A DNA stretch of 64,000 bases, taken from NCBI GenBank assembly GCA_045863235.1, contig BTUM01000008.1:64001-128000 (forward strand), given 5' to 3'. This stretch comes from Candidatus Xenobia bacterium (GTDB lineage Bacteria > Vulcanimicrobiota > Xenobia > Xenobiales > QWHO01). A program made the translations under genes and the position numbers. Under the pieces are notes generated by a model. The model worked only from the letters and a program-made list of their open reading frames with translations. It made no database searches and had not been told where the DNA came from. Positions 45,355 through 52,944 of this stretch are shown one piece after another (position 1 is the stretch's first letter; each line of letters starts with the position of its first letter).

Positions 45355-45376
45355 GGATTGAACCGCGCCCACCTGC

Positions 45377-45850
45377 TTACCCCAGCGGCTCGAGCAAGAA
45401 GATCTTTTGCCCGGACTCGACCACGGCGGCGTTCTCGACGAGGATGCCGGCAACGCGACCGGGCATCTCAGCGGTGATCTCGTTCATCAGCTTCATGGCT
45501 TCAATGATGCAGAGAGTCTGGCCCACGCTCACATGGTCGCCCACCTGCACGAAGGGCGGAGCCCCCGGGTTGGGGGAGCGATAGAAAACACCCGCCAGAG
45601 GCGAGACCACTGGTCTCAAGTTCTCGTTGGCAGGCTCGGGAGCGGCCGTAGCAGGCCGGACCGGAGAGCGTCTGGCCGCCACCGCCAGCGGCGTCTGGAC
45701 GGGGACCGCTACCGGTTGAGCCTCCCCCGTATCCACGATCAGGTGGATACGCGCGTTCTCGTTGCGATAATCGATCTCGGCCAGACCTTCTTCCCGGGCC
45801 ACCCGAGCCAGAGCCCGGGCTAATTCGAGATGTTCCTTCAATCCGCTCAC
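45377..45850 (-). CDS. accB: Acetyl-CoA carboxylase biotin carboxyl carrier protein
   Basis: SPLAGVFYRSP, IEAMKLMNEI biotinylation motif. Confidence 0.95.
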   Translation of the reverse strand: MSGLKEHLELARALARVAREEGLAEIDYRNENARIHLIVDTGEAQPVAVPVQTPLAVAARRSPVRPATAAPEPANENLRPVVSPLAGVFYRSPNPGAPPFVQVGDHVSVGQTLCIIEAMKLMNEITAEMPGRVAGILVENAAVVESGQKIFLLEPLG

Positions 45851-45924: not shown

Positions 45925-45953
45925 AACATGCCAAAATCCAGCGAGAATGTCAA
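45925..45953 (-). promoter_or_regulatory. Sigma70-type promoter for accB operon
   Basis: Minus strand TTGACA-17 nt-CATGTT with extended TG. Confidence 0.5.
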
Positions 45954-46043
45954 GAAAATCCGGGGTCCGCGGAGGAGCCCTACGCCCCGCCAGGGACCGC
46001 CCGCCTGCACCTGTCTGGAGTAGAGGGCCTCTCGAAGACGCTG

Positions 46044-48269
46044 TTACGAACGTCGGGAAGACGAGGAAGAGCGCCGGCGACGTCCTCCTCCGCTGCTCGA
46101 GGAGGCGGAACGTTGCCCGCCGCCACCCGAGCCACCCGAGCCACCTGAGCCGCTCGAGCGGCGGCGCCGACGAGAGCTGTCCGAATCGCCATCCGAAGCC
46201 CGGTAGCGCGAAGCAGCGGCCCGACTCGACTCGAGCAAAGCCAGCTTGGAATCGACCGGGGCTGGCTCATCGTCGTCGTCTCGAGTCCGACGGCCACGCG
46301 GCTCGTCATAGTAGTCCTCGTCGTGATAACGAGGGGCTGGCTCGCTGCGGCGGTAATCGTCCTCGTAAGAGGGTGGCGCGCTCCTGCTACCGCTCCGGCT
46401 CCCGCTCCCACCCCCGCTTGTGCTGGCGCTACTGCGACCGCGCCGCCCGCGGCCCGAGCTTTCGTAGGCTCCGGTTTCCACGCTCGATTCGCGCGCAGAG
46501 CGGTACCGGTCGTCGCGTCCTCGACCCGAGCGAGGGGCCTCCTCGCGACTGTACTCCTCCCGCTCGCGATAAGCGGGCGGCTCGTCACGATAATCCTCTC
46601 GCTCATAGCGGGGCGAATAGTCTTCTCGCTCGTAGTCGTCATAGTAGCGGCGAGTCGAGCTCTCCTCGTATCGATCGTCGGGCGGGTAAGCAGCCGCTCG
46701 CTCGGAAGTCGAGGTGCGGCTCTCTGCTTCGGAATCACGCCGACTGCGACGGCGCCGACGCGAGCGACTGGAAGTGCGCTCCTCTTCGGGCTCGTGAGTC
46801 GAGACGTGGCGGGTCTCGACCGGAGGAGCATCGTCCTCCTGACCTCGCCGACGGCGACGGCGGCGCTTGGAGCGCCCGTCCCCCCGCTCGGAAGCGGTCG
46901 CAGGCTCTTGCTGCTGGTCGTAGTGCACCTCGAGGTCTGACTCCACGTTGAAGTGGCGCCCGCGCAGAGCTCCGTTTCGCCGGGTGCCGCCACGCCCAGA
47001 GCGGCTCTCCTTCTCTCGTGGAGCGCGCTCGGCCGGAGCCACCGCGCCTCCCATGCCGAGTCGACTGGCCAGCCGGTGGGCCAGTTCGCTCAGGTTGTAG
47101 CGATCCTTGTGGTCGCTGTGACGGTCGTGAACCTGGGCCACGCCCCGGATAGCGTCCTTCTCGCTCAACAGAACGAGGAAACGAGGAGCCTCGGGAGCTT
47201 CCTCTCCGCCCAGCGCCATTTCAGCGTAAATCCCAGCCTCGCGCAGCACATTCAGAACCGGCATCAGAAGACGGGTGGCTTCCTCGCCTTCCGGCTGCAG
47301 GTAAACCGATGGAGAGGGCCGCGTGAACTCGCCGGGCACAGCTTCCAGAATCGCTTCCAGTTGGAGGGCAAAGCCGACGGCCGGGGTATCCGGTCCACCC
47401 AGGGTCTCCACCAGGCCATCATAACGACCACCGGTGCCCAGCACCGATTCGCCGTGTCGAACCTGGAAGATTGTGCGGTTGTAATACTCCAGGTCGCGCA
47501 CCACGCGCGGATTCAGGTCGTGAGGAATCTTCATCTCGGCCAGATAGGCCTTGAGCTGACTGAAATGCTGCTTACAGGCCGGGCAGAGCAGGCCGAACAT
47601 GGTGGGGGCCACCTGCCCGAGCTCAGCGCAACTCTTCTCGTTGCAACCCAGCGTCCAGAGCGGATGAGTCTTGTGCTTGCGCTTGCAAGTTCCACAAAGC
47701 TCGTTGGAATGGGACGAGAAGTACTCCTTGAGAACCTCATGGTAAGCCGGGCGACACTTGTCGCATCCCAACGAGTTGAGCTCGAAGACCACGTCGCTCA
47801 AGCCGATGCGCTTGAGGAACGCCCAGGCCAGGGCGATCACCTCGGCATCCTGGGCCGGGTGGGGCGAACCCAGAGCTTCGACCCCGAACTGGTGGCTCTG
47901 TCGGCTGCCTTCCTCGGTCTCCCGGCCGATCAGGAAGACGGGGGCCAGGTAGTAGAACTTGCTGACGCCCTGGTTCTTCTCGTTGAGGTTGTTCTCATAG
48001 TAAGCGCGTACCACCGAAGCGGTGACATCGGCTCGCAAGGCCAGCTTCTGGCCAAACTTGTCGTGGAAGGTCCAGAGCTCGCGCTCGACGAGCCCGGCCA
48101 GGACTCCCATCCCCCTCACGAAAAGCTCCGCCTTTTCGAACAGAGGGGTTCGAATCTCGAGATAACCGTATTGCTGACTGAGTAACCGGGCCTGACTCTC
48201 GATCAGTTGCCAGCGGGATGTCTCTTCCGGTAGTAGATCACGGGTGCCACGCACCGCTCGGACAGACAT
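46044..48269 (-). CDS. Histidyl-tRNA synthetase paralog, probably inactive, with long Arg/Ser/acidic disordered tail
   Basis: RGTRDLLP, EIRTPLFE, Cys-rich insertion, VRDLEYY, GGRYDGL, PAVGFA; motif 2/3 Args missing. Confidence 0.9.
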   Translation of the reverse strand: MSVRAVRGTRDLLPEETSRWQLIESQARLLSQQYGYLEIRTPLFEKAELFVRGMGVLAGLVERELWTFHDKFGQKLALRADVTASVVRAYYENNLNEKNQGVSKFYYLAPVFLIGRETEEGSRQSHQFGVEALGSPHPAQDAEVIALAWAFLKRIGLSDVVFELNSLGCDKCRPAYHEVLKEYFSSHSNELCGTCKRKHKTHPLWTLGCNEKSCAELGQVAPTMFGLLCPACKQHFSQLKAYLAEMKIPHDLNPRVVRDLEYYNRTIFQVRHGESVLGTGGRYDGLVETLGGPDTPAVGFALQLEAILEAVPGEFTRPSPSVYLQPEGEEATRLLMPVLNVLREAGIYAEMALGGEEAPEAPRFLVLLSEKDAIRGVAQVHDRHSDHKDRYNLSELAHRLASRLGMGGAVAPAERAPREKESRSGRGGTRRNGALRGRHFNVESDLEVHYDQQQEPATASERGDGRSKRRRRRRRGQEDDAPPVETRHVSTHEPEEERTSSRSRRRRRSRRDSEAESRTSTSERAAAYPPDDRYEESSTRRYYDDYEREDYSPRYEREDYRDEPPAYREREEYSREEAPRSGRGRDDRYRSARESSVETGAYESSGRGRRGRSSASTSGGGSGSRSGSRSAPPSYEDDYRRSEPAPRYHDEDYYDEPRGRRTRDDDDEPAPVDSKLALLESSRAAASRYRASDGDSDSSRRRRRSSGSGGSGGSGGGGQRSASSSSGGGRRRRSSSSSRRS

Positions 48270-48309
48270 GATTCACAAACCTCCGCGGATGAGGGACCGG
48301 GCGCATGGC

Positions 48310-48338
48310 TTGCGCGCCGACGAAGTCCCTTCGATAAT
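48310..48338 (+). promoter_or_regulatory. Sigma70-type promoter pointing into ORF-free structured region
   Basis: TTGCGC-17 nt-GATAAT. Confidence 0.45.
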
Positions 48339-48344
48339 GGTGGG

Positions 48345-48643
48345 CGCCGGCCGTGCCACTCGGGGAGGATGCTCGCGATCGTCTCAGTGTCTGCGACCTT
48401 TCGTCTCGCAGAAAGGATGGCGCGACAAAGGCCGGTGAACGTGGTTCCACGATACCTGACGTTTCACTATTCAGTTTGCGCCGAATCGGCTCTCTCTTTG
48501 TCGCCATCGGTTGCTCGCGTCGGAGCATTCCCCTTCGGTATCAGGGCATCGGACCCTGGGGATGTCGGGGTAGGTTAACCCGGCGGCCTGGAGGGGAAAG
48601 TGGCCTGCTTTCCACGCTGTCATCGCAACGGCTACCCGACATT
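48345..48643 (+). ncRNA. Candidate structured ncRNA (6S-like rod ~48353-48541 plus a second domain 48561-48643)
   Basis: Nested complementarity GGATGCTC/GAGCATTC, GATGGCG..ACAAAG/CTTTGTCGCCATC, TCTGCGA/TCGCAGA; G-U pairs favour + strand; upstream promoter. Confidence 0.45.
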
Positions 48644-48692
48644 GAGTTGTTTCGGGGAAGAAGCCAAGTTTCCTCTCCGGCCAGGAATGGCC

Positions 48693-50000
48693 TCAGGAAA
48701 CGACCTCTTCGATCAATGGCCGCGGGCTGGTTGGGGTGGCTGCAATCGAGATAGCTTCGCCGATCAGAGCCCGAGAGGTCTGGAGTTGGGAACGGTCGTT
48801 GACGTGGAACGTCAGCAAAGGCTCTCCGGCTTCGACCCGATCGCCCAGGCGTTTGTGGAGGACAAGTCCGACGGCGTGATCGATGGGGTCGTCCTTGCGC
48901 AGTCGACCTGCCCCCAGCACCATCGCCGCGCGGCCCAGGGTCTCTGCCTGCAGACTTGCCACAAAGCCCGACTCAGGGGCCGGATAGTCCTCCAGGTGAG
49001 ACGCGGTGGGCAAGAGTCCCGGGTCGTCCACCACCCGAGCGTCCCCTCCCTGGGCACTGATGAGTTCACGCAACTTCTCGGCGGCCGCGCCGGACTGTAT
49101 CAATCGGCCAGCCTCGGCGCGCGCAGCCGAAAGGTCCGACTGCAAACCGGCCATTTCCAGCAGATGAGCGGCCAACTCGCGGGCCACCTGAGCCAGCGCC
49201 GAATCTGCCCGCTGACCCTGGAGAATCTCAATGGCCTCACGAAACTCGAGCGCGTTGCCGATGTGCGTTCCCAAGGGTTGCTCCATATCCGACAGGGCGG
49301 CGCGAACCTTGCGACCCAGGCGCTTGCCAATGGCCACCATCGAGCGAGCCAGGCGACGGGCGTCTTCCAGATTCTTCATGAACGCCCCGTGACCAAACTT
49401 GACGTCCAGCAGGATCGCATCGGCGCCACAGGCGAGCTTCTTGCTCATGATCGAGCTGGCGATCAGGGGGATGGAATCCACCGTGGCGGTCACATCGCGC
49501 AGGGCGTACATCTTGCCATCGGCCGGCACCAGGCTCCCGGTCTGGCTGATGACGGCCACACCGATGCGGCGCACCTGCTCGAGAAACTCCTCGGCTGACA
49601 GGTTGACGCGCAGCCCGGGCACAGACTCCATTTTGTCCAGCGTGCCTCCGGTGTGGCCCAGACCCCGCCCCGACATCTTGGCCACCCGGGCCCCTGCGGC
49701 GGCAGCCAGTGGTGCTAGAACCAGCGTGGTCGTATCCCCCACCCCTCCGGTGGAGTGCTTGTCGACCTTGACGCCGGGGATACTGGAAAGGTCGACCGTG
49801 TCCCCCGATGCCACCATCGCCTCGGTGAGCCAGCCAGTCTCCTCGTCGGTCATGCCCCGAAGAAAGACTGCCATCATCCAGGCCGACATCTGGTAGCTCT
49901 CCATGCGGCCAGCCACGAACTCGCTGATCAAGAAGCGGATTTCCTCGGCGCTGTGGGCCTCTCCGTCGCGCTTGCGTCGGATCAGGTCGTAGACCCTCAT
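48693..50000 (-). CDS. pdp: Pyrimidine-nucleoside phosphorylase
   Basis: DKHSTGGVGD, KMSGRGLGHTGGTLDK, SSIMSKK. Confidence 0.96.
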   Translation of the reverse strand: MRVYDLIRRKRDGEAHSAEEIRFLISEFVAGRMESYQMSAWMMAVFLRGMTDEETGWLTEAMVASGDTVDLSSIPGVKVDKHSTGGVGDTTTLVLAPLAAAAGARVAKMSGRGLGHTGGTLDKMESVPGLRVNLSAEEFLEQVRRIGVAVISQTGSLVPADGKMYALRDVTATVDSIPLIASSIMSKKLACGADAILLDVKFGHGAFMKNLEDARRLARSMVAIGKRLGRKVRAALSDMEQPLGTHIGNALEFREAIEILQGQRADSALAQVARELAAHLLEMAGLQSDLSAARAEAGRLIQSGAAAEKLRELISAQGGDARVVDDPGLLPTASHLEDYPAPESGFVASLQAETLGRAAMVLGAGRLRKDDPIDHAVGLVLHKRLGDRVEAGEPLLTFHVNDRSQLQTSRALIGEAISIAATPTSPRPLIEEVVS

Positions 50001-50836
50001 CGGGCCGGCACGCCCGGCATGGCCTTGACGACTCCCCGAACCAGGTTGATGAACCGGGGCCCGGCCTCGGCAGCGGTAGCCAGCACGTCCTCATGAGTAT
50101 CTTCCGAGGGACCTCGATGCAAAACATTGGTCACACAGGAGATTCCCAGGACCCGCATCCCCTGGTGCCGTGCCACGATCACCTCGGGCACGGTAGACAT
50201 TCCGATGGTGTCGGCTCCGATCATCCCAAAAAAGTGAATTTCGGCCGGGGTCTCGAAACTCGGGCCGGCCAATCCCAGATACACTCCGTCTTTGATGCGG
50301 AACCCCTGACTGGAAGCCACCTTGTGAGCCAACTCTCGCAACTCCAGATCGTAAGCGCGCGACATGGGAGGAAAGCGCGGTCCCAGCCGCTCGTCATTCG
50401 GCCCTCGCAAAGGGTTGGCCCCCATCAAGTTGATGTGATCGGTGAGCAGCATCAGGTCACCGGGCACCAGATCGGAACGCACGCCCCCGCTGGCATTGGT
50501 GACGATCAACGTATGGGCGCCCAGCGCGCCCAGCAAGCGCACCCCAAAGGTGACCTCCTGCAGGCCATAGCCTTCGTAATAGTGCACCCGCCCCCGCATG
50601 ACGGCCACTGGAGTGTCTTCCAACTGGCCCAACACCAGTTCACCCTGATGCCCGACCACGGTGGAACGGGGCAGACAAGGAATCTCTTCGTAGGGGATCC
50701 GCTGCGCGCTGGCCACGTCATCAGCCAGCTTCCCCAGGCCAGAGCCAAGAATCAGGGCGACTTCGGGCTTGAAGTCCCCCACGCGTTTGCGAACCTGCTC
50801 CACAGCTGCCTGAATCTTATCGTAGTCGTCGACCAA
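49997..50836 (-). CDS. punA: Purine-nucleoside phosphorylase (trimeric type)
   Basis: ILGSGLG, GRVHYYEG, GPSFETPAE, GMSTVPE; TTG start after AAAGGA. Confidence 0.93.
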   Translation of the reverse strand: MVDDYDKIQAAVEQVRKRVGDFKPEVALILGSGLGKLADDVASAQRIPYEEIPCLPRSTVVGHQGELVLGQLEDTPVAVMRGRVHYYEGYGLQEVTFGVRLLGALGAHTLIVTNASGGVRSDLVPGDLMLLTDHINLMGANPLRGPNDERLGPRFPPMSRAYDLELRELAHKVASSQGFRIKDGVYLGLAGPSFETPAEIHFFGMIGADTIGMSTVPEVIVARHQGMRVLGISCVTNVLHRGPSEDTHEDVLATAAEAGPRFINLVRGVVKAMPGVPAR

Positions 50837-51041
50837 GAAATCGTGTCGTCCTTTCCATTCTCGTTCCCAGGCTCTGCGCTGCCAACCGTGCAAAGGCCGG
50901 CGCCTGATGAGCCCCGTTTTCCGCCTCGGCCCTCTTTACCTGTTGGAGCAAATCGTCTATCATGATCTTGCTCACGGCGGGGGACGTGTTTCCAACACTC
51001 CTAGAGGTTTTTCCCTTCTTCCCCGCCGCGGGCGCTTTTCT

Positions 51042-51518
51042 TTACTCGGCCTGCTCGAGGGTAGGGCGGAATTTTTCGAGCACCTTGAGCTCTTCCGCGA
51101 AGCGACTGACATCCTTGAATTCCTTGTAAACCGAAGCGAAGCGCACATAGGCAACCTCATCCAGGTCGCGCAGGGTGTTCATGACCATCTCCCCGATCTC
51201 CTGACCCGAGATCTCGGATTCACCCCGATAACGCAGGGTCTGCTCGATCTGATTGACGGCCTGCTCCATCTGCTCGAAGCTGACGGGGCGCTTTTGACAG
51301 GCTCGCAGGACTCCGTTCAAAACCTTGCTGCGGTCGAACTTCTCCCGGCGGCGATCCTTCTTGACCACCATCAGCAGAGTTTCCTCGAAGCGCTCGTAAG
51401 TCGTAAATCGCCGCCCGCAAGCCTCGCACTCGCGACGGCGACGAATGGACTGATCGTCCTCGGTCACCCGCGAATCGACAACTTTGGTTTGCAGGTGCTC
51501 ACAATACGGACAACGCAG
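51042..51518 (-). CDS. nrdR: Transcriptional repressor NrdR (apparent CTG start)
   Basis: xRCPYC..VVDSR, IRRRRECEAC, ATP cone, VAYVRFASVY. Confidence 0.95.
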   Translation of the reverse strand: MRCPYCEHLQTKVVDSRVTEDDQSIRRRRECEACGRRFTTYERFEETLLMVVKKDRRREKFDRSKVLNGVLRACQKRPVSFEQMEQAVNQIEQTLRYRGESEISGQEIGEMVMNTLRDLDEVAYVRFASVYKEFKDVSRFAEELKVLEKFRPTLEQAE

Positions 51519-51519
51519 G

Positions 51520-52773
51520 TCAGAACACCTCGCTCAGCCAGCGACCGACCCGGGTCAACATGACCTTGACCTTGGACGGGCCACCCTCATCCTCGAGAGA
51601 ATCCGCGCTGCGCACGGCTCGCCGGACAGCGGCGTGCAAAATCAGGCCCACGGCTGAGGAATAAATGGGCGAAGCCAGCGAGTCCATCAAGCCCGGGGGA
51701 TAGCAGGGCGTCGCGATGCGGGCCGGAAGGCTCAACTCGCGGTGAGCCAGATGAGCGATCCCCGGCAACTGGGCCGTGCCCCCGGTAATGACCAGGTTGG
51801 TGACGACCAAACCCATTCGCTCAGCCAGCTGGATCTGCTTGCCCACCCAGTCGAAGACATCCAGCAGACGAGCCTCGAGCACTTCGGCCAGTTGGATGCG
51901 GGAGACGGGAACCTTCTGATCTCCGGCCAGGCTCAAGGCCTCCAGCATCTCGTCGTCACCCTCGTGATAGTCGGGCGAAGCGACCCCACGCTCGAGCTTG
52001 AGCCGCTCAGCCTCGGCCGGGGGAATCCGGAAGAAACGGGCAAGATCGTGGGTCAGGAAGTCGCCCGCCACCGGAAGCACCCCCGAATGGCCGATCTCTC
52101 CGTCACAGTAAACGGCCAGGTCGACCGTACCGGCCCCGATATCGATCATTGCCGTGCCCAGCTTGCGCTCTTCCTCGGTCATCACGGCCAGGGCCGAAGC
52201 GATGGAAGAGGCCACCATACCGTCATTCTCGACCTCCAGGCCAGCTTTCTGGACGCACTTGCGCATATTCTGCAAGAAGGCCGAGGCGGCAGCCACCACA
52301 TGGGTGTTCACCTCCAACCGAATACCAGATAGGCCAACCGGATTGCGGATGCCGCTCTGGCCATCGACCGTAAAGCCACGAGGCACGATGTGAAGAATCT
52401 CGCGGTCCGAAGGAATGCCCACCATGCGTGCGGCATCGATCACGCGCCGCACGTCGGAACTGGTCACCTCGCCCTCGGGGCTGGAAATCGCCCACACGCC
52501 CTGAGCGGGCAAAGAGCGCAGATACTCACTGGAGAGACTCAGGTAGACCGGACCGACAGGATAACCGGCCTGCTTCTCAGCATCGCCCACGGCCTCTTCA
52601 ATCGAGCGAACCGTTTCTTCGGGGTCGACCAGGGCGCCTTTGCGCAGACCAAGGCAGGGGCTGACTCCGTGCGAAACGACCTCCAGCTCGCCACCGGCAT
52701 CGAGCTCTGCGATCACGCAAGCCACTTTGCTCGTGCCGATGTCGACGGCGGTAAGAACTTCCATCCTGGGCAT
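51520..52773 (-). CDS. ftsA: Cell division protein FtsA
   Basis: DIGTSKV, GLRKG, SHS2 insert (NPVGLSGIRLE), DIGAGT, C-terminal amphipathic RWLSEVF. Confidence 0.96.
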   Translation of the reverse strand: MPRMEVLTAVDIGTSKVACVIAELDAGGELEVVSHGVSPCLGLRKGALVDPEETVRSIEEAVGDAEKQAGYPVGPVYLSLSSEYLRSLPAQGVWAISSPEGEVTSSDVRRVIDAARMVGIPSDREILHIVPRGFTVDGQSGIRNPVGLSGIRLEVNTHVVAAASAFLQNMRKCVQKAGLEVENDGMVASSIASALAVMTEEERKLGTAMIDIGAGTVDLAVYCDGEIGHSGVLPVAGDFLTHDLARFFRIPPAEAERLKLERGVASPDYHEGDDEMLEALSLAGDQKVPVSRIQLAEVLEARLLDVFDWVGKQIQLAERMGLVVTNLVITGGTAQLPGIAHLAHRELSLPARIATPCYPPGLMDSLASPIYSSAVGLILHAAVRRAVRSADSLEDEGGPSKVKVMLTRVGRWLSEVF

Positions 52774-52944
52774 ACTTGCACCCCTCAAAGGGTAGTCTCT
52801 GGTGTAGCTGGCAAGCTCGCTGCACGCTTACTTGCGGTGTTGGCCTAATTGGTTCGGGCCGGCTCTTGAATTTCCTTCCAGGCCAGAAGAAAAAGCCCGA
52901 CGATCCGCGCTCTGGGTTTCTTGGAGCGGGCCCGCGACTCCTCG

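Follow-up and report, generated by a model that had tools for sequence, protein, structure and literature searches.

The ORF at 46044..48269 on the minus strand encodes a degenerate HisRS (741 aa and a stop, here named P0001) in which a complete HisRS fold over residues 8-415 is followed in frame by a tail of 331 aa. Such a tailed and, judged by its residues, dead HisRS copy has been kept beside the normal enzyme throughout a class of uncultured Eremiobacterota. On balance, and with restrained confidence, we take P0001 to be a non-catalytic descendant of a HisRS of bacterial type that acts as an RNA-binding scaffold or condensate client. The analyzed stretch, here referred to as the window, comprises 64,000 nucleotides of Candidatus Xenobia bacterium DNA.

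The whole ORF was assigned as a pseudo-HisRS with a disordered tail from the reading frame and the TIGR00442 profile. Residues 411-741 (46047..47039, stop at 46044-46046) are an in-frame continuation of the HisRS-like domain. The DNA of the tail also has long ORFs in three further frames, which arise from its high GC content and low complexity. Relative to the 741-aa frame, substitutions between close genomes fall mostly on third codon positions (75/109, 134/188 and 136/191), and the gap runs among three close genomes were 3 or 6 nt long in 12 of 12 cases. The dN/dS values ranged from 0.10 to 0.26 in the tail and from 0.03 to 0.13 in the core. The junction of domain and tail was bridged by contigs of three further runs (X2, X3 and X5); contigs from RNA libraries are no proof of transcription. 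X2 and X3 contigs share a 9-nt in-frame insertion after position 46146. Parts of the gene had no contig cover in X4 and X5.

Conservation in relatives and purifying selection in the 741-aa frame show the tail to be more than a chance extension, and on this pattern it is probably translated. The preliminary description, made from the letters of the window and their reading frames, had presented the tail as real, in frame and disordered, and on all of this it is upheld by the dN/dS values, by the indels in multiples of three and by low AF2 pLDDT. It had also pointed to the junction as the place to look for an error, and there the three further runs agree with it. Homologs ending near residue 410 would have spoken for a lost stop codon; instead, charged tails were present in 70/70 related protein clusters, ranging in length from 148 to 719 aa with a charged fraction of 0.33-0.58.

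The tail (residues 411-741) was delimited by AF2 pLDDT, composition, dN/dS and indels. It contains R73, S59, E37, G33, D28, A25, P19 and Y19, and I, L, V, M, F and W together account for only 3.6% of its residues. The AF2 pLDDT is below 50 for residues 424-741; the tail is thus predicted to be disordered, low AF2 confidence being a hint and not proof. The charged fraction is 0.43 at a net charge per residue of +0.03. Charge segregation amounted to 0.099 compared to a shuffle mean of 0.054 (sd 0.009) and lay above all 2000 shuffles, so that the blocky charge noted at the outset is real. A likeness to SR proteins had been noted as well. This is true of the composition; the 26 RS and SR dipeptides equal the shuffle mean of 26.1 (1086/2000 shuffles reach 26), hence there is no RS-repeat signal beyond composition, and no RRM accompanies it. 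An RS-repeat signature was therefore rejected.

In total, four poly-Arg runs and two short conserved islands are found in the tail, and all strings quoted in the preliminary description are present. Island 1, RRNGALRGRHFNVESDLEVHYD (residues 430-451, 46917..46982, minus strand as are all features below), is invariant at nearly every position in the five closest homologs, whose overall identity goes down to 63%, and is confined to the P0001 subclade (5/70 tails). Two poly-Arg runs, recognized by composition and homolog alignment, are SKRRRRRRRG (residues 467-476, 46842..46871), which is followed by an acidic stretch, and SRSRRRRRSRR (residues 501-511, 46737..46769). A Tyr/acidic/Arg block (residues 528-654, 46308..46688) holds 17/19 tail tyrosines and includes YEREDYSPRYEREDY (546-560) and YEDDY (635-639); DEDYYD lies at 650-655. 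Island 2, PVDSKLALLESSRAAASRYR (residues 671-690, 46200..46259), is invariant in the five closest homologs and contains the sole helix predicted for the tail (674-689; AF2, low confidence). By sequence and composition, the remaining part (residues 700-741, 46047..46172) consists of poly-Arg run 3, a Gly/Ser linker and the terminal RRRRSSSSSRRS (730-741). In the AF2 model neither island is docked onto the core, both having a pLDDT below 50.

The core is HisRS-like throughout. The NCBIfam model hisS (TIGR00442) scored 298 bits against a cut-off of 286.75 and was covered from position 2 to 361 of 406. The Pfam scan of the 741 aa detected tRNA-synt_His (PF13393, residues 8-307) only, with no RRM and no kinase or pseudokinase domain, and HGTP_anticodon (PF03129) was not detected either. 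AF2 pLDDT was high over residues 8-415 and mostly above 85 in residues 1-318. Foldseek returned bacterial HisRS structures with a TMt of 0.80-0.83 to full-length HisRS (0.83 for 4e51_A) over approximately 420 columns. Pfam, AF2 and Foldseek thereby delimit a class-II catalytic core with insertion domain at residues 1-318 (47316..48269). Within the insertion domain, residues 169-232 (47574..47765) are rich in Cys, with four CxxC/CxxxxC pairs in the sequence; C192, C195, C209 and C214 are invariant across the 70 tailed proteins, and the four pairs are probable zinc sites. An alpha/beta fold resembling the anticodon-binding domain follows at residues 320-405 (47055..47312; AF2, Foldseek and group consensus comparison), with secondary structure at 322-403 and high pLDDT. 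In comparison with the group consensus, the conserved SLKxQxKxA helix is missing from it, as are the GExE and eQ motifs. The motif-1 proline of the dimer interface was kept in 68/70 tailed proteins.

For the comparison of catalytic residues, 70 tailed proteins were set against 50 HisRS of normal length, with positions assigned by alignment to 1kmm (E. coli numbering). Motif 2 (residues 106-134, 47868..47954) is degenerate. P0001 carries Leu113 at the invariant class-II arginine (E. coli R113), which was found in 0/70 tailed proteins (L, M, S or A instead) and in 50/50 normal HisRS. Motif 3, which this alignment places at GFAxGLER (R311) and not at GGRYD, is degenerate as well (residues 297-306, AVGFALQLEA, 47352..47381): P0001 reads QLEA, with Ala306 for the invariant arginine of GxGxER and Gln303 in place of glycine, and the arginine was again kept in 0/70 tailed proteins versus 50/50 normal HisRS. 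Furthermore, E83 is replaced by D or N and G260 by D or E in 70/70 tailed proteins, both being D in P0001. Gly115 of P0001 aligns with T. thermophilus Glu114, which is absolutely essential for aminoacylation according to the available part of PMC4357726, the source also for the roles of motif-2 residues in HisRS. The enzyme part is read as dead because both class-II ATP-binding arginines are absent in 70/70 tailed proteins; judged from these residues, catalysis by P0001 is very unlikely.

The histidine pocket is better preserved in part of the family. T83, Q127, E131, R258, Y262, Y263 and R282, which we take from HisRS structures to be the residues lining this pocket, are kept in the P0001 subclade. 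In the HisA (RGLDYY) and GGRYD motifs of P0001 this concerns R258, Y262, Y263 and R282. Eight family members (P0063-70) are without Q127, E131, R258 and Y262, so that histidine sensing cannot be the function of the whole family. The preliminary description had spoken of a His/tRNA sensing domain. This understates a pseudo-enzyme without both class-II ATP-binding arginines, and the pocket residues that would fit such a role are kept in the P0001 subclade and lost in P0063-70.

Positions expected to contact tRNA are likewise retained in part. In T. thermophilus HisRS the pair Arg115/Arg122 clamps the 5' end (G-1) of tRNA-His, as described in the accessible text of PMC4357726. The positions aligned with this pair are kept in P0001; among the tailed proteins the first is K or R in 69/70 and the second R in 62/70. 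The median net charge of the motif-2 loop is 0 in tailed proteins versus +3 in real HisRS, and this far less basic loop could weaken acceptor-end binding. The GUG anticodon is decoded in T. thermophilus by Glu386-388 and Gln404 (PMC4357726, same part). The corresponding GxxE and eQ positions are not conserved in the tailed proteins, though the C-terminal fold is present. With the conserved helix and the decoding residues gone from the anticodon-binding domain, specific binding of tRNA-His is doubtful.

Within the genus, 3 further genomes have the same architecture, and it was found in 31 more among those listed in the order. Tail sequence and length vary widely between subclades. A run of at least six R/K was present in 34/70 tails, which rules out poly-Arg with Gly and acidic residues as a universal tail motif, and a Tyr content of at least 4% was restricted to P0001-5 and P0063-70. 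The islands also differ by subclade (KAxxPxxxLG 40/70, LNWS 44/70, RPVEVRR 18/70, P0001 type 5/70), and partners or roles may therefore differ too. Tailed proteins of a sister family (G102, G108 and G040) kept the motif-2 and motif-3 arginines, and in a class-level relative (G090) the HisRS is degenerate and untailed.

A second HisRS is located on contig 59 (C59:24014-25258). It belongs to another type, covers the full hisS model with 344.8 bits and has intact motifs. Because this better-scoring HisRS exists elsewhere in the genome, P0001 is a HisRS paralog, as the preliminary description had stated, and the contig-59 enzyme most likely does the charging of tRNA-His. Its type was present in 38/39 other genomes of the order. 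In the phylum sample, lineages carried one HisRS type or the other and both occurred only in the class of P0001, where the bacterial-type copy is the degenerate one. Database labels of relatives read histidine--tRNA ligase or HisZ, two of them ATP phosphoribosyltransferase regulatory subunit. These labels are probably wrong and would mislead metabolic reconstructions.

Upstream of the paralog lie genes, identified by Pfam, for a pyrimidine-nucleoside phosphorylase (48693-50000), a PNP_UDP_1 phosphorylase (49997-50893), NrdR (51042-51467) and FtsA (51520-52788), together 48693..52788. Their order and strand were the same in 5/5 relatives examined, which is context only. Downstream, a biotin-carrier-like gene (AccB-like, 157 aa, 45377..45850, Pfam Biotin_lipoyl) adjoins the paralog in 3/5 relatives. 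An Rfam search found no T-box or other riboswitch in the 423-nt upstream spacer, and the sole Rfam row (45356-45400, E 0.016) is at chance level, far below the gathering score. Promoter and terminator scans gave counts near those of shuffles. The other top Arg/acidic disordered extensions of the genome are on Rho, PNPase and an SpoU rRNA methylase. The only RNase E/G homolog is a 569-aa frame without a long scaffold domain. The genome contains 93 Pkinase matches, 91 of them over the cut-off, which says nothing about this tail and gives no evidence for the phosphoregulation by Hanks kinases suggested in the preliminary description.

By analogy, P0001 is likely a non-catalytic tRNA/RNA-binding or scaffold protein, an RNA function being proposed from composition, analogy and genomic company. 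The core may still dock RNA, probably acceptor ends resembling those of tRNA, and would no longer be specific for tRNA-His. The Arg-rich tail could add non-specific RNA affinity and multivalency, a dimer of HisRS type would present two tails, and the conserved islands may recruit partners. Core and tail together would then form the RNA-binding scaffold or condensate client proposed here.

The tail could instead be mainly a hub for proteins, a scaffold of degradosome type whose islands and poly-Arg runs would engage PNPase or other enzymes and for which RNA binding would be secondary. We consider this unlikely, even though several observations are in agreement with it. Two islands are invariant inside an otherwise fast-evolving sequence, other subclades have islands of their own, and the sole RNase E/G homolog offers no such scaffold. 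PNPase of this genome carries a charged tail itself. Cyanobacterial RNase E binds PNPase via the nonapeptide RRRRRRSSA, as given in the available portion of PMC3964918, and the tail of P0001 contains several poly-Arg runs followed by Ser. However, this likeness is compositional, and long poly-Arg runs are found in fewer than half of the tails.

A bolder proposal is that bacteria of the Xenobia class independently built a counterpart of the Gcn2 sensor module, that is a dead HisRS clamping tRNA together with a condensing or associating tail. Though dead as an enzyme, the HisRS would keep its grip on the acceptor end of uncharged tRNAs. In amino-acid shortage, the multivalent Arg/Tyr/acidic tail would bring about RNA-dependent condensation or association with ribosome or degradosome, and the very large set of Ser/Thr kinases might tune the module. 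If true, RNA metabolism would be coupled to tRNA charging status, in a lineage for which neither hisG nor hisD was found. We regard this as rather improbable.

It is very doubtful that the core is structural or moonlighting and the tail largely tolerated low-complexity sequence without specific function. The wide variation of tail sequence, length and islands between subclades and the untailed degenerate HisRS of G090 would suit such a view. The low dN/dS of the tail, its frame-preserving indels, a composition kept in 70/70 and islands invariant among the closest homologs argue against it.

Little probability is also left for a histidine-sensing regulator like HisZ, in which the pseudo-active site binds histidine and controls a partner enzyme and the tail is accessory. 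HisZ uses its own pseudo-active site in this way (PMC4335047, as far as available), the pocket is retained in the P0001 subclade, and two relatives bear the label of the regulatory subunit mentioned above. However, the hisZ model TIGR00443 reached only 153 bits against a cut-off of 271.65, and neither hisG (TIGR00070) nor hisD (TIGR00069) turned up in the draft genome, which is 97.6% complete and whose gaps are not proof of absence. A hisF-like match was below its cut-off as well (232.5 vs 294.55 bits). The failure to find hisG and hisD makes a HisZ role unlikely, and together with the hisZ score this led us to reject it as the main reading; the loss of pocket residues in P0063-70 points in the same direction.

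That P0001 is a still-active, specialized second HisRS, whose tail assists in tRNA binding as appended domains do in eukaryotic synthetases, is hardly probable. The hisS score just above the cut-off, the HisA arginine and GGRYD motif, and the arginines of the tailed sister family are consistent with activity, but both invariant class-II arginines are missing in 70/70 tailed proteins, Gly stands at the essential Glu114 equivalent, conservation is lacking at the positions that decode the anticodon, and the genome contains another, complete HisRS. Finally, there is virtually no chance that a frameshift, the loss of a stop codon or a chimeric assembly fused non-coding DNA to hisS, as the three other open frames could at first suggest, in view of an architecture that recurs in related genomes and across 70 protein clusters drawn from several sources, the bridged junction, the frame-keeping indels, and codon-position and dN/dS patterns in agreement with the 741-aa frame.

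Pseudo-enzymes derived from synthetases, such as HisZ and the HisRS domain of Gcn2, are classic cases of enzyme repurposing, and a few bacterial RNA enzymes are known to carry long disordered tails that bind RNA. Our literature search found no described tailed bacterial HisRS paralog and no paper on a tailed HisRS family. The initial statement that no bacterial synthetase family with such an architecture is known therefore stands as far as this search goes, and no prior description was found of a bacterial synthetase paralog joining a pseudo-enzyme with a disordered tail. The family also offers a natural series (f4 tailed with intact arginines, f1-f3 tailed and dead, f5 untailed and degenerate), which could show how a housekeeping enzyme is freed for a new role after the other HisRS type takes charging over. 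The tail itself is a compact test case of whether blocky Arg/Tyr/acidic sequences form condensates in bacteria.

Compared with bacterial HisRS (TIGR00442; 4e51, 1qe0, 1kmm, 4rdx/1adj), P0001 is 30-33% identical to the solved structures and likewise has a catalytic core, a Cys-bearing insertion domain and a C-terminal alpha/beta domain. The motif-1 proline, the HisA arginine and GGRYD are retained. In contrast, the motif-2 and motif-3 arginines, E83, G260 and the equivalent of T. thermophilus Glu114 are missing, the anticodon-binding domain is without its conserved helix and decoding residues, and P0001 adds the disordered tail and coexists with another intact HisRS. HisZ is not known to have the anticodon-binding domain. 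P0001 keeps its C-terminal domain, adds the tail and, unlike HisZ, scores far below the hisZ cut-off in a genome where hisG and hisD were not found. HisZ is a HisRS paralog whose pseudo-active site no longer catalyzes (available parts of PMC4335047 and PMC7373986), and P0001 resembles it in this, judged by its residues.

The tail resembles eukaryotic SR proteins in being rich in Arg and Ser and in offering numerous potential phosphosites, but it is also rich in Tyr and acidic residues and near-neutral, with RS/SR not enriched and no RRM. The insertion regions of bacterial Rho in Bacteroides and mycobacteria are biased, Arg-rich disorder on an RNA-handling protein as well (PMC11347177 and 10.1101/2025.08.28.672908, accessible sections). 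There the host protein and the position are different, and phase separation of the P0001 tail is putative. Rho of the P0001 genome has an Arg-rich disordered extension of its own.

The proposed scaffold or condensate function is likened to the C-terminal half of RNase E, the scaffold of degradosome and BR-bodies, or to the pairing of HisRS-like and C-terminal domains in Gcn2. Long disorder, segregated charge, Arg-rich segments and short conserved islands amid fast-evolving sequence are shared with RNase E (PMC11964227, PMC10412687 and PMC3964918, in the parts available). The tail of P0001, a putative RNA binder, is attached to a dead synthetase and not to a ribonuclease, and the RNase E/G homolog of the same genome is without such a region. 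The HisRS domain of Gcn2 is without adenylate-forming elements yet mimics both tRNA-binding domains, according to the accessible text of PMC11363354 and PMC4335047. P0001 shares with it a HisRS fold without these elements and without the anticodon-decoding side chains, and in Gcn2 the C-terminal region after the HisRS-like domain mediates further contacts to nucleic acid and ribosome (PMC11363354, same text). P0001 differs from Gcn2 in having no kinase or pseudokinase domain, in a C-terminal part that is a long disordered polyampholyte and not a folded dimerisation domain, and in its origin, which is bacterial and independent.

The tailed HisRS paralog is encoded by a single ORF (window positions 46044..48269, minus strand) of 741 aa. 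The sole Pfam match in this protein was tRNA-synt_His at residues 8–307, and the NCBIfam hisS model scored 298 bits (cut-off 286.75) but covered only positions 2–361 of 406. In an AlphaFold2 model, computed with 70 homologs as input, residues 8–415 were confident. Residues 424–741 had a pLDDT below 50 and contained a lone helix (674–689) of low confidence. The folded part matched the full-length bacterial HisRS 4e51_A, 4rdx_A and 1adj_A in Foldseek (TMt 0.80–0.83, ~420 columns). Based on these results the protein comprises a complete HisRS fold, with catalytic core, insertion domain and C-terminal alpha/beta domain, followed by approximately 330 residues predicted to be disordered. The insertion domain (47574–47765, minus strand) carries eight cysteines in four CxxC/CxxxxC pairs. 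Four of these cysteines are invariant across the tailed family, and the cysteines are likely to make up two zinc sites.

Among 5.8 billion proteins searched, 70 clusters shared the core (P0001–P0070, 558–1135 aa, that of the query included), and a charged tail was present in all 70. Matches from P0071 onwards were ordinary HisRS of 415–452 aa with the Pfam anticodon domain. The 70 tails were 148–719 aa long (median 233.5), with a charged fraction of 0.33–0.58, a net charge per residue of -0.04 to +0.15 and a hydrophobic fraction of 0.04–0.17; the homologs thus do carry tails of similar composition. Selection was assessed against three congeneric genomes (G106, G104 and G054). Nei-Gojobori dN/dS was 0.10–0.26 for the tail and 0.03–0.13 for the core, and differences at codon positions 1/2/3 amounted to 20/14/75, 35/19/134 and 34/21/136. 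When the three closest tails were aligned as nucleotides, all 12 gap runs were 3 or 6 nt long.

The stretch was also found in public sequencing runs, namely the RNA libraries X2 and X3 of two studies and the further DNA runs X4 and X5. Contigs of three runs crossed from core to tail near 47040 with no differences: X3 record 11 (46665–47729), X2 record 4 (46783–47101) and X5 record 23 (46798–47169), whereby the RNA-library contigs are no proof of transcription. Contigs of X2 and X3 carried a frame-preserving insertion of 9 nt in the Gly/Ser linker at 46146, which looks like strain-level variation in tail length. The preliminary description had considered that homologs might end near residue 410 and that the tail might stem from a lost stop codon or an assembly error; the 70 tails, the dN/dS values, the in-frame gaps and the junction contigs rule this out. 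Other frames of the tail DNA, on both strands, contain three further long ORFs of 334, 337 and 205 aa (45947–46993). The GC content of this DNA at codon positions 1/2/3 was 0.71/0.66/0.69, and the three ORFs were rejected as genes and regarded as by-products of composition.

All poly-Arg and Tyr/acidic strings initially quoted for the tail were found in the sequence. Its 331 residues include R73, S59, E37, G33, D28, A25, P19 and Y19, and I/L/V/M/F/W together account for 3.6%. The charged fraction was 0.43 and the net charge per residue +0.03. The blocky charge proposed earlier was confirmed, since charge segregation exceeded that of all 2000 shuffles. The proposed likeness to SR proteins did not hold in the sense of an RS-repeat domain: with 26 RS+SR dipeptides the tail has as many as its shuffles (mean 26.1). 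We therefore class it as a polyampholyte with blocky charge, not as an RS-repeat domain.

Among the five closest homologs (to 63% identity) the islands RRNGALRGRHFNVESDLEVHYD (residues 430–451) and PVDSKLALLESSRAAASRYR (671–690) were invariant within variable sequence, and the poly-Arg runs were conserved likewise. Other subclades carried other islands, such as KAxxPxxxLG (40/70), LNWS (44/70) and RPVEVRR (18/70). Tyr-rich blocks were restricted to the subclade of the query and a Bruticola-like subclade of ~1000-aa proteins. Since islands and Tyr blocks are specific to subclades, the conserved property of the tails is their composition, and the islands resemble short linear motifs particular to each lineage.

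For the catalytic core, residues 1–440 of the 70 tailed proteins were aligned with 50 normal HisRS, with numbering taken from E. coli HisRS (1kmm) through a HMMER alignment. The arginines of motif 2 and motif 3 are invariant ATP-binding residues of class II synthetases. Both were present in all 50 normal HisRS. In the tailed proteins the motif-2 position (R113) was occupied by L (53), M (8), S (5) or A (4), and the motif-3 position (R311) by A (20), E (17), P (11), M (8), T (7), S (5), N (1) or I (1). The motif-3 glycine G308, E83 and G260 were likewise found in 50 of 50 normal HisRS; no tailed protein had a glycine at 308, E83 was replaced by D (64) or N (6) and G260 by D (69) or E (1). Kept were the GGRYD arginine (70/70), Y264 (69/70), the motif-1 proline (68/70), T85 and E131 (62/70 each), Q127 (61/70) and the HisA arginine R259 (59/70).

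The accessible parts of a T. thermophilus study (PMC4357726) describe motif-2 Glu114 as absolutely essential for aminoacylation; Gly115 of the query aligns with it. In the same parts, Arg115 and Arg122 clamp the acceptor stem and hold the G-1 phosphate. At the clamp-aligned positions of the tailed family, 116 was K/R in 69/70 and 123 was R in 62/70. The motif-2 loop was far less basic, with a median net charge of 0 versus +3 in normal HisRS. In the C-terminal domain, the SLKxQxKxA helix and the GxxE and eQ motifs are conserved in normal HisRS but not in the tailed group, and the query has a deletion at the expected place of the helix. As far as the accessible text covers it, Glu386-388 (GxxE) of T. 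thermophilus read G34 and Gln404 (eQ) reads U35 (PMC4357726). With these motif and decoding residues lost and the clamp positions kept, the core resembles, as judged from the alignment, a HisRS no longer able to make histidyl-adenylate or to read the anticodon, and it may have retained holding of the acceptor end.

The hisS model has a second match in the source genome (8.36 Mb in 166 contigs, 97.6% complete), located on contig 59, with 344.8 bits over the full model (2–404). This HisRS of 434 aa has a canonical motif 2 (WRGERPAQGRFREFYQ), HisA (VRGLDYY), GGRYE and the anticodon domain, and most likely it carries out the charging of tRNA-His. The tRNA-His gene is single, with anticodon GUG, an encoded G-1 and C73. 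An alternative is a HisZ-type role of the tailed protein in histidine synthesis. The hisZ model matched it with 153 bits (cut-off 271.65), hisG and hisD were not found in the 97.6% complete genome, and a hisF-like match (C6:115604-116296) stayed below its cut-off. These results make a HisZ-type role unlikely; the organism may depend on histidine from outside, i.e. may be a histidine auxotroph.

To compare the two HisRS types, 300 further genomes of the phylum were searched both with the core of the tailed protein and with the contig-59 HisRS. Within the order of the window (f1–f3, 39 genomes) 36 carried a bacterial-type homolog and 38 the contig-59 type, both together occurring in 35. Open frames of 559–1090 aa were listed for 34 of the 36 bacterial-type matches; the remaining two were a contig-end fragment (G078) and a match without listed place (G084). 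The remaining families of this class (f4 and f5, four genomes) had the bacterial-type homolog in 4/4 and the contig-59 type in 3/4. The 257 genomes outside the class include ten flagged as unpublished (G212, G263, G177, G237, G247, G230, G275, G245, G232 and G127), which bear on these rest-of-phylum tallies only. Here 245 had a bacterial-type homolog, with listed frames mostly of ~424–440 aa, and seven the contig-59 type. All seven were among those without a bacterial-type match, so none of the 257 had both types and co-occurrence was confined to the class. The two types are thus distributed almost either/or in the sampled phylum.

The f4 proteins (G102, G108 and G040) have R/E/D-rich tails with a common island G-x-RF-x-EWA-x-TY. 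They kept the motif-2 and motif-3 arginines, and their HisA arginine is changed to His or Asn. The f5 protein (G090:C381:3679-7746), which is of bacterial type and sits in a 441-aa frame, lacks a tail; with its degenerate motif 2, HisA and motif 3 it would represent an untailed pseudo-HisRS. In a quick maximum-likelihood tree (58 rows, midpoint root only) the 17 sampled tailed proteins were split off together with an SH-aLRT of 99, and a group of tailed proteins and the f4 pair separated from all others with 92. On the simplest reading, a second HisRS type in the class ancestor would have freed the bacterial-type copy, which gained a tail and then lost catalytic residues stepwise. The source names of the relatives are Eremiobacterota, Vulcanimicrobiota and Candidatus Bruticola, the latter being classified in class Candidatus Xenobia.

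The paralog lies in a same-strand run of FtsA, NrdR, a PNP-family phosphorylase, a pyrimidine-nucleoside phosphorylase, the paralog itself and a biotin-carrier-like gene. The order of the four upstream genes was kept in all five relatives examined, and the biotin-carrier-like gene adjoined the paralog in three of them. This may be the ancestral hisS position, without evident functional link. The spacer of 423 nt between the pyrimidine-nucleoside phosphorylase gene and the paralog (48270–48692) matched no Rfam family, T-box included, and gave no promoter-like site that was convincing.

In a six-frame scan of the whole genome for Arg/acidic low-complexity stretches the paralog ranked third. The other leading ORFs, identified by Pfam, were Rho (C2:171467-173782, minus strand; 772-aa frame with ~340 R/E/G-rich, GREHEGRDRG-like repeat residues between Rho_N and the RNA-binding domain), PNPase (C62:43626-46544, minus strand; 973-aa frame with a C-terminal RD/RE/PRE-repeat tail of ~260 aa after the S1 domain) and a SpoU-family rRNA methyltransferase (C103:8432-10021, minus strand; 530 aa, N-terminal R/G/E-rich extension of ~280 aa). 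Also among the leading ORFs were two proteins with charged repeat regions, one with an HD domain (HD_5; C35:58738-61422) and one of the DUF3300 family (C4:35116-37530), and a 684-aa ORF without Pfam family, reaching the contig end (C26:83415-85466), which had a long R/E-rich coiled-coil-like charged region. With Rho, PNPase and the methylase among them, such tails thus sit mostly on RNA-handling proteins in this organism. The only RNase E/G homolog has a frame of 569 aa and lacks a long scaffold region. The Pkinase family had 93 matches in the genome (91 over cut-off), a very large Hanks-type complement for a bacterium.

The protein has an apparently dead HisRS fold, in which the clamp positions are kept, and a tail that is under selection, translated, charge-segregated, Arg-rich and predicted to be disordered; the genome also encodes an intact alternative HisRS. 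We consider it very probable that the protein is a pseudo-enzyme, that it is conserved and that its disordered tail is genuine. The core, which like HisRS is probably dimeric, would dock RNA ends without charging them, the tail would supply non-specific RNA affinity and multivalency, and the islands would recruit partner molecules. Taken together, these parts would make the whole protein an RNA-binding scaffold or condensate client; we lean slightly towards this scaffold mechanism.

In full-text searches, which covered main texts and few papers of subscription journals, nothing relevant turned up on a bacterial HisRS paralog with a tail. For the tail, the closest precedents in the portions of the literature accessible are the scaffold of RNase E and the insertions of Rho. 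Functionally, the nearest precedent is Gcn2, whose HisRS domain, according to the accessible parts of two reports, mimics both tRNA-binding domains, lacks elements needed to form the adenylate and to aminoacylate, and works together with the C-terminal domain (PMC11363354, PMC4335047).
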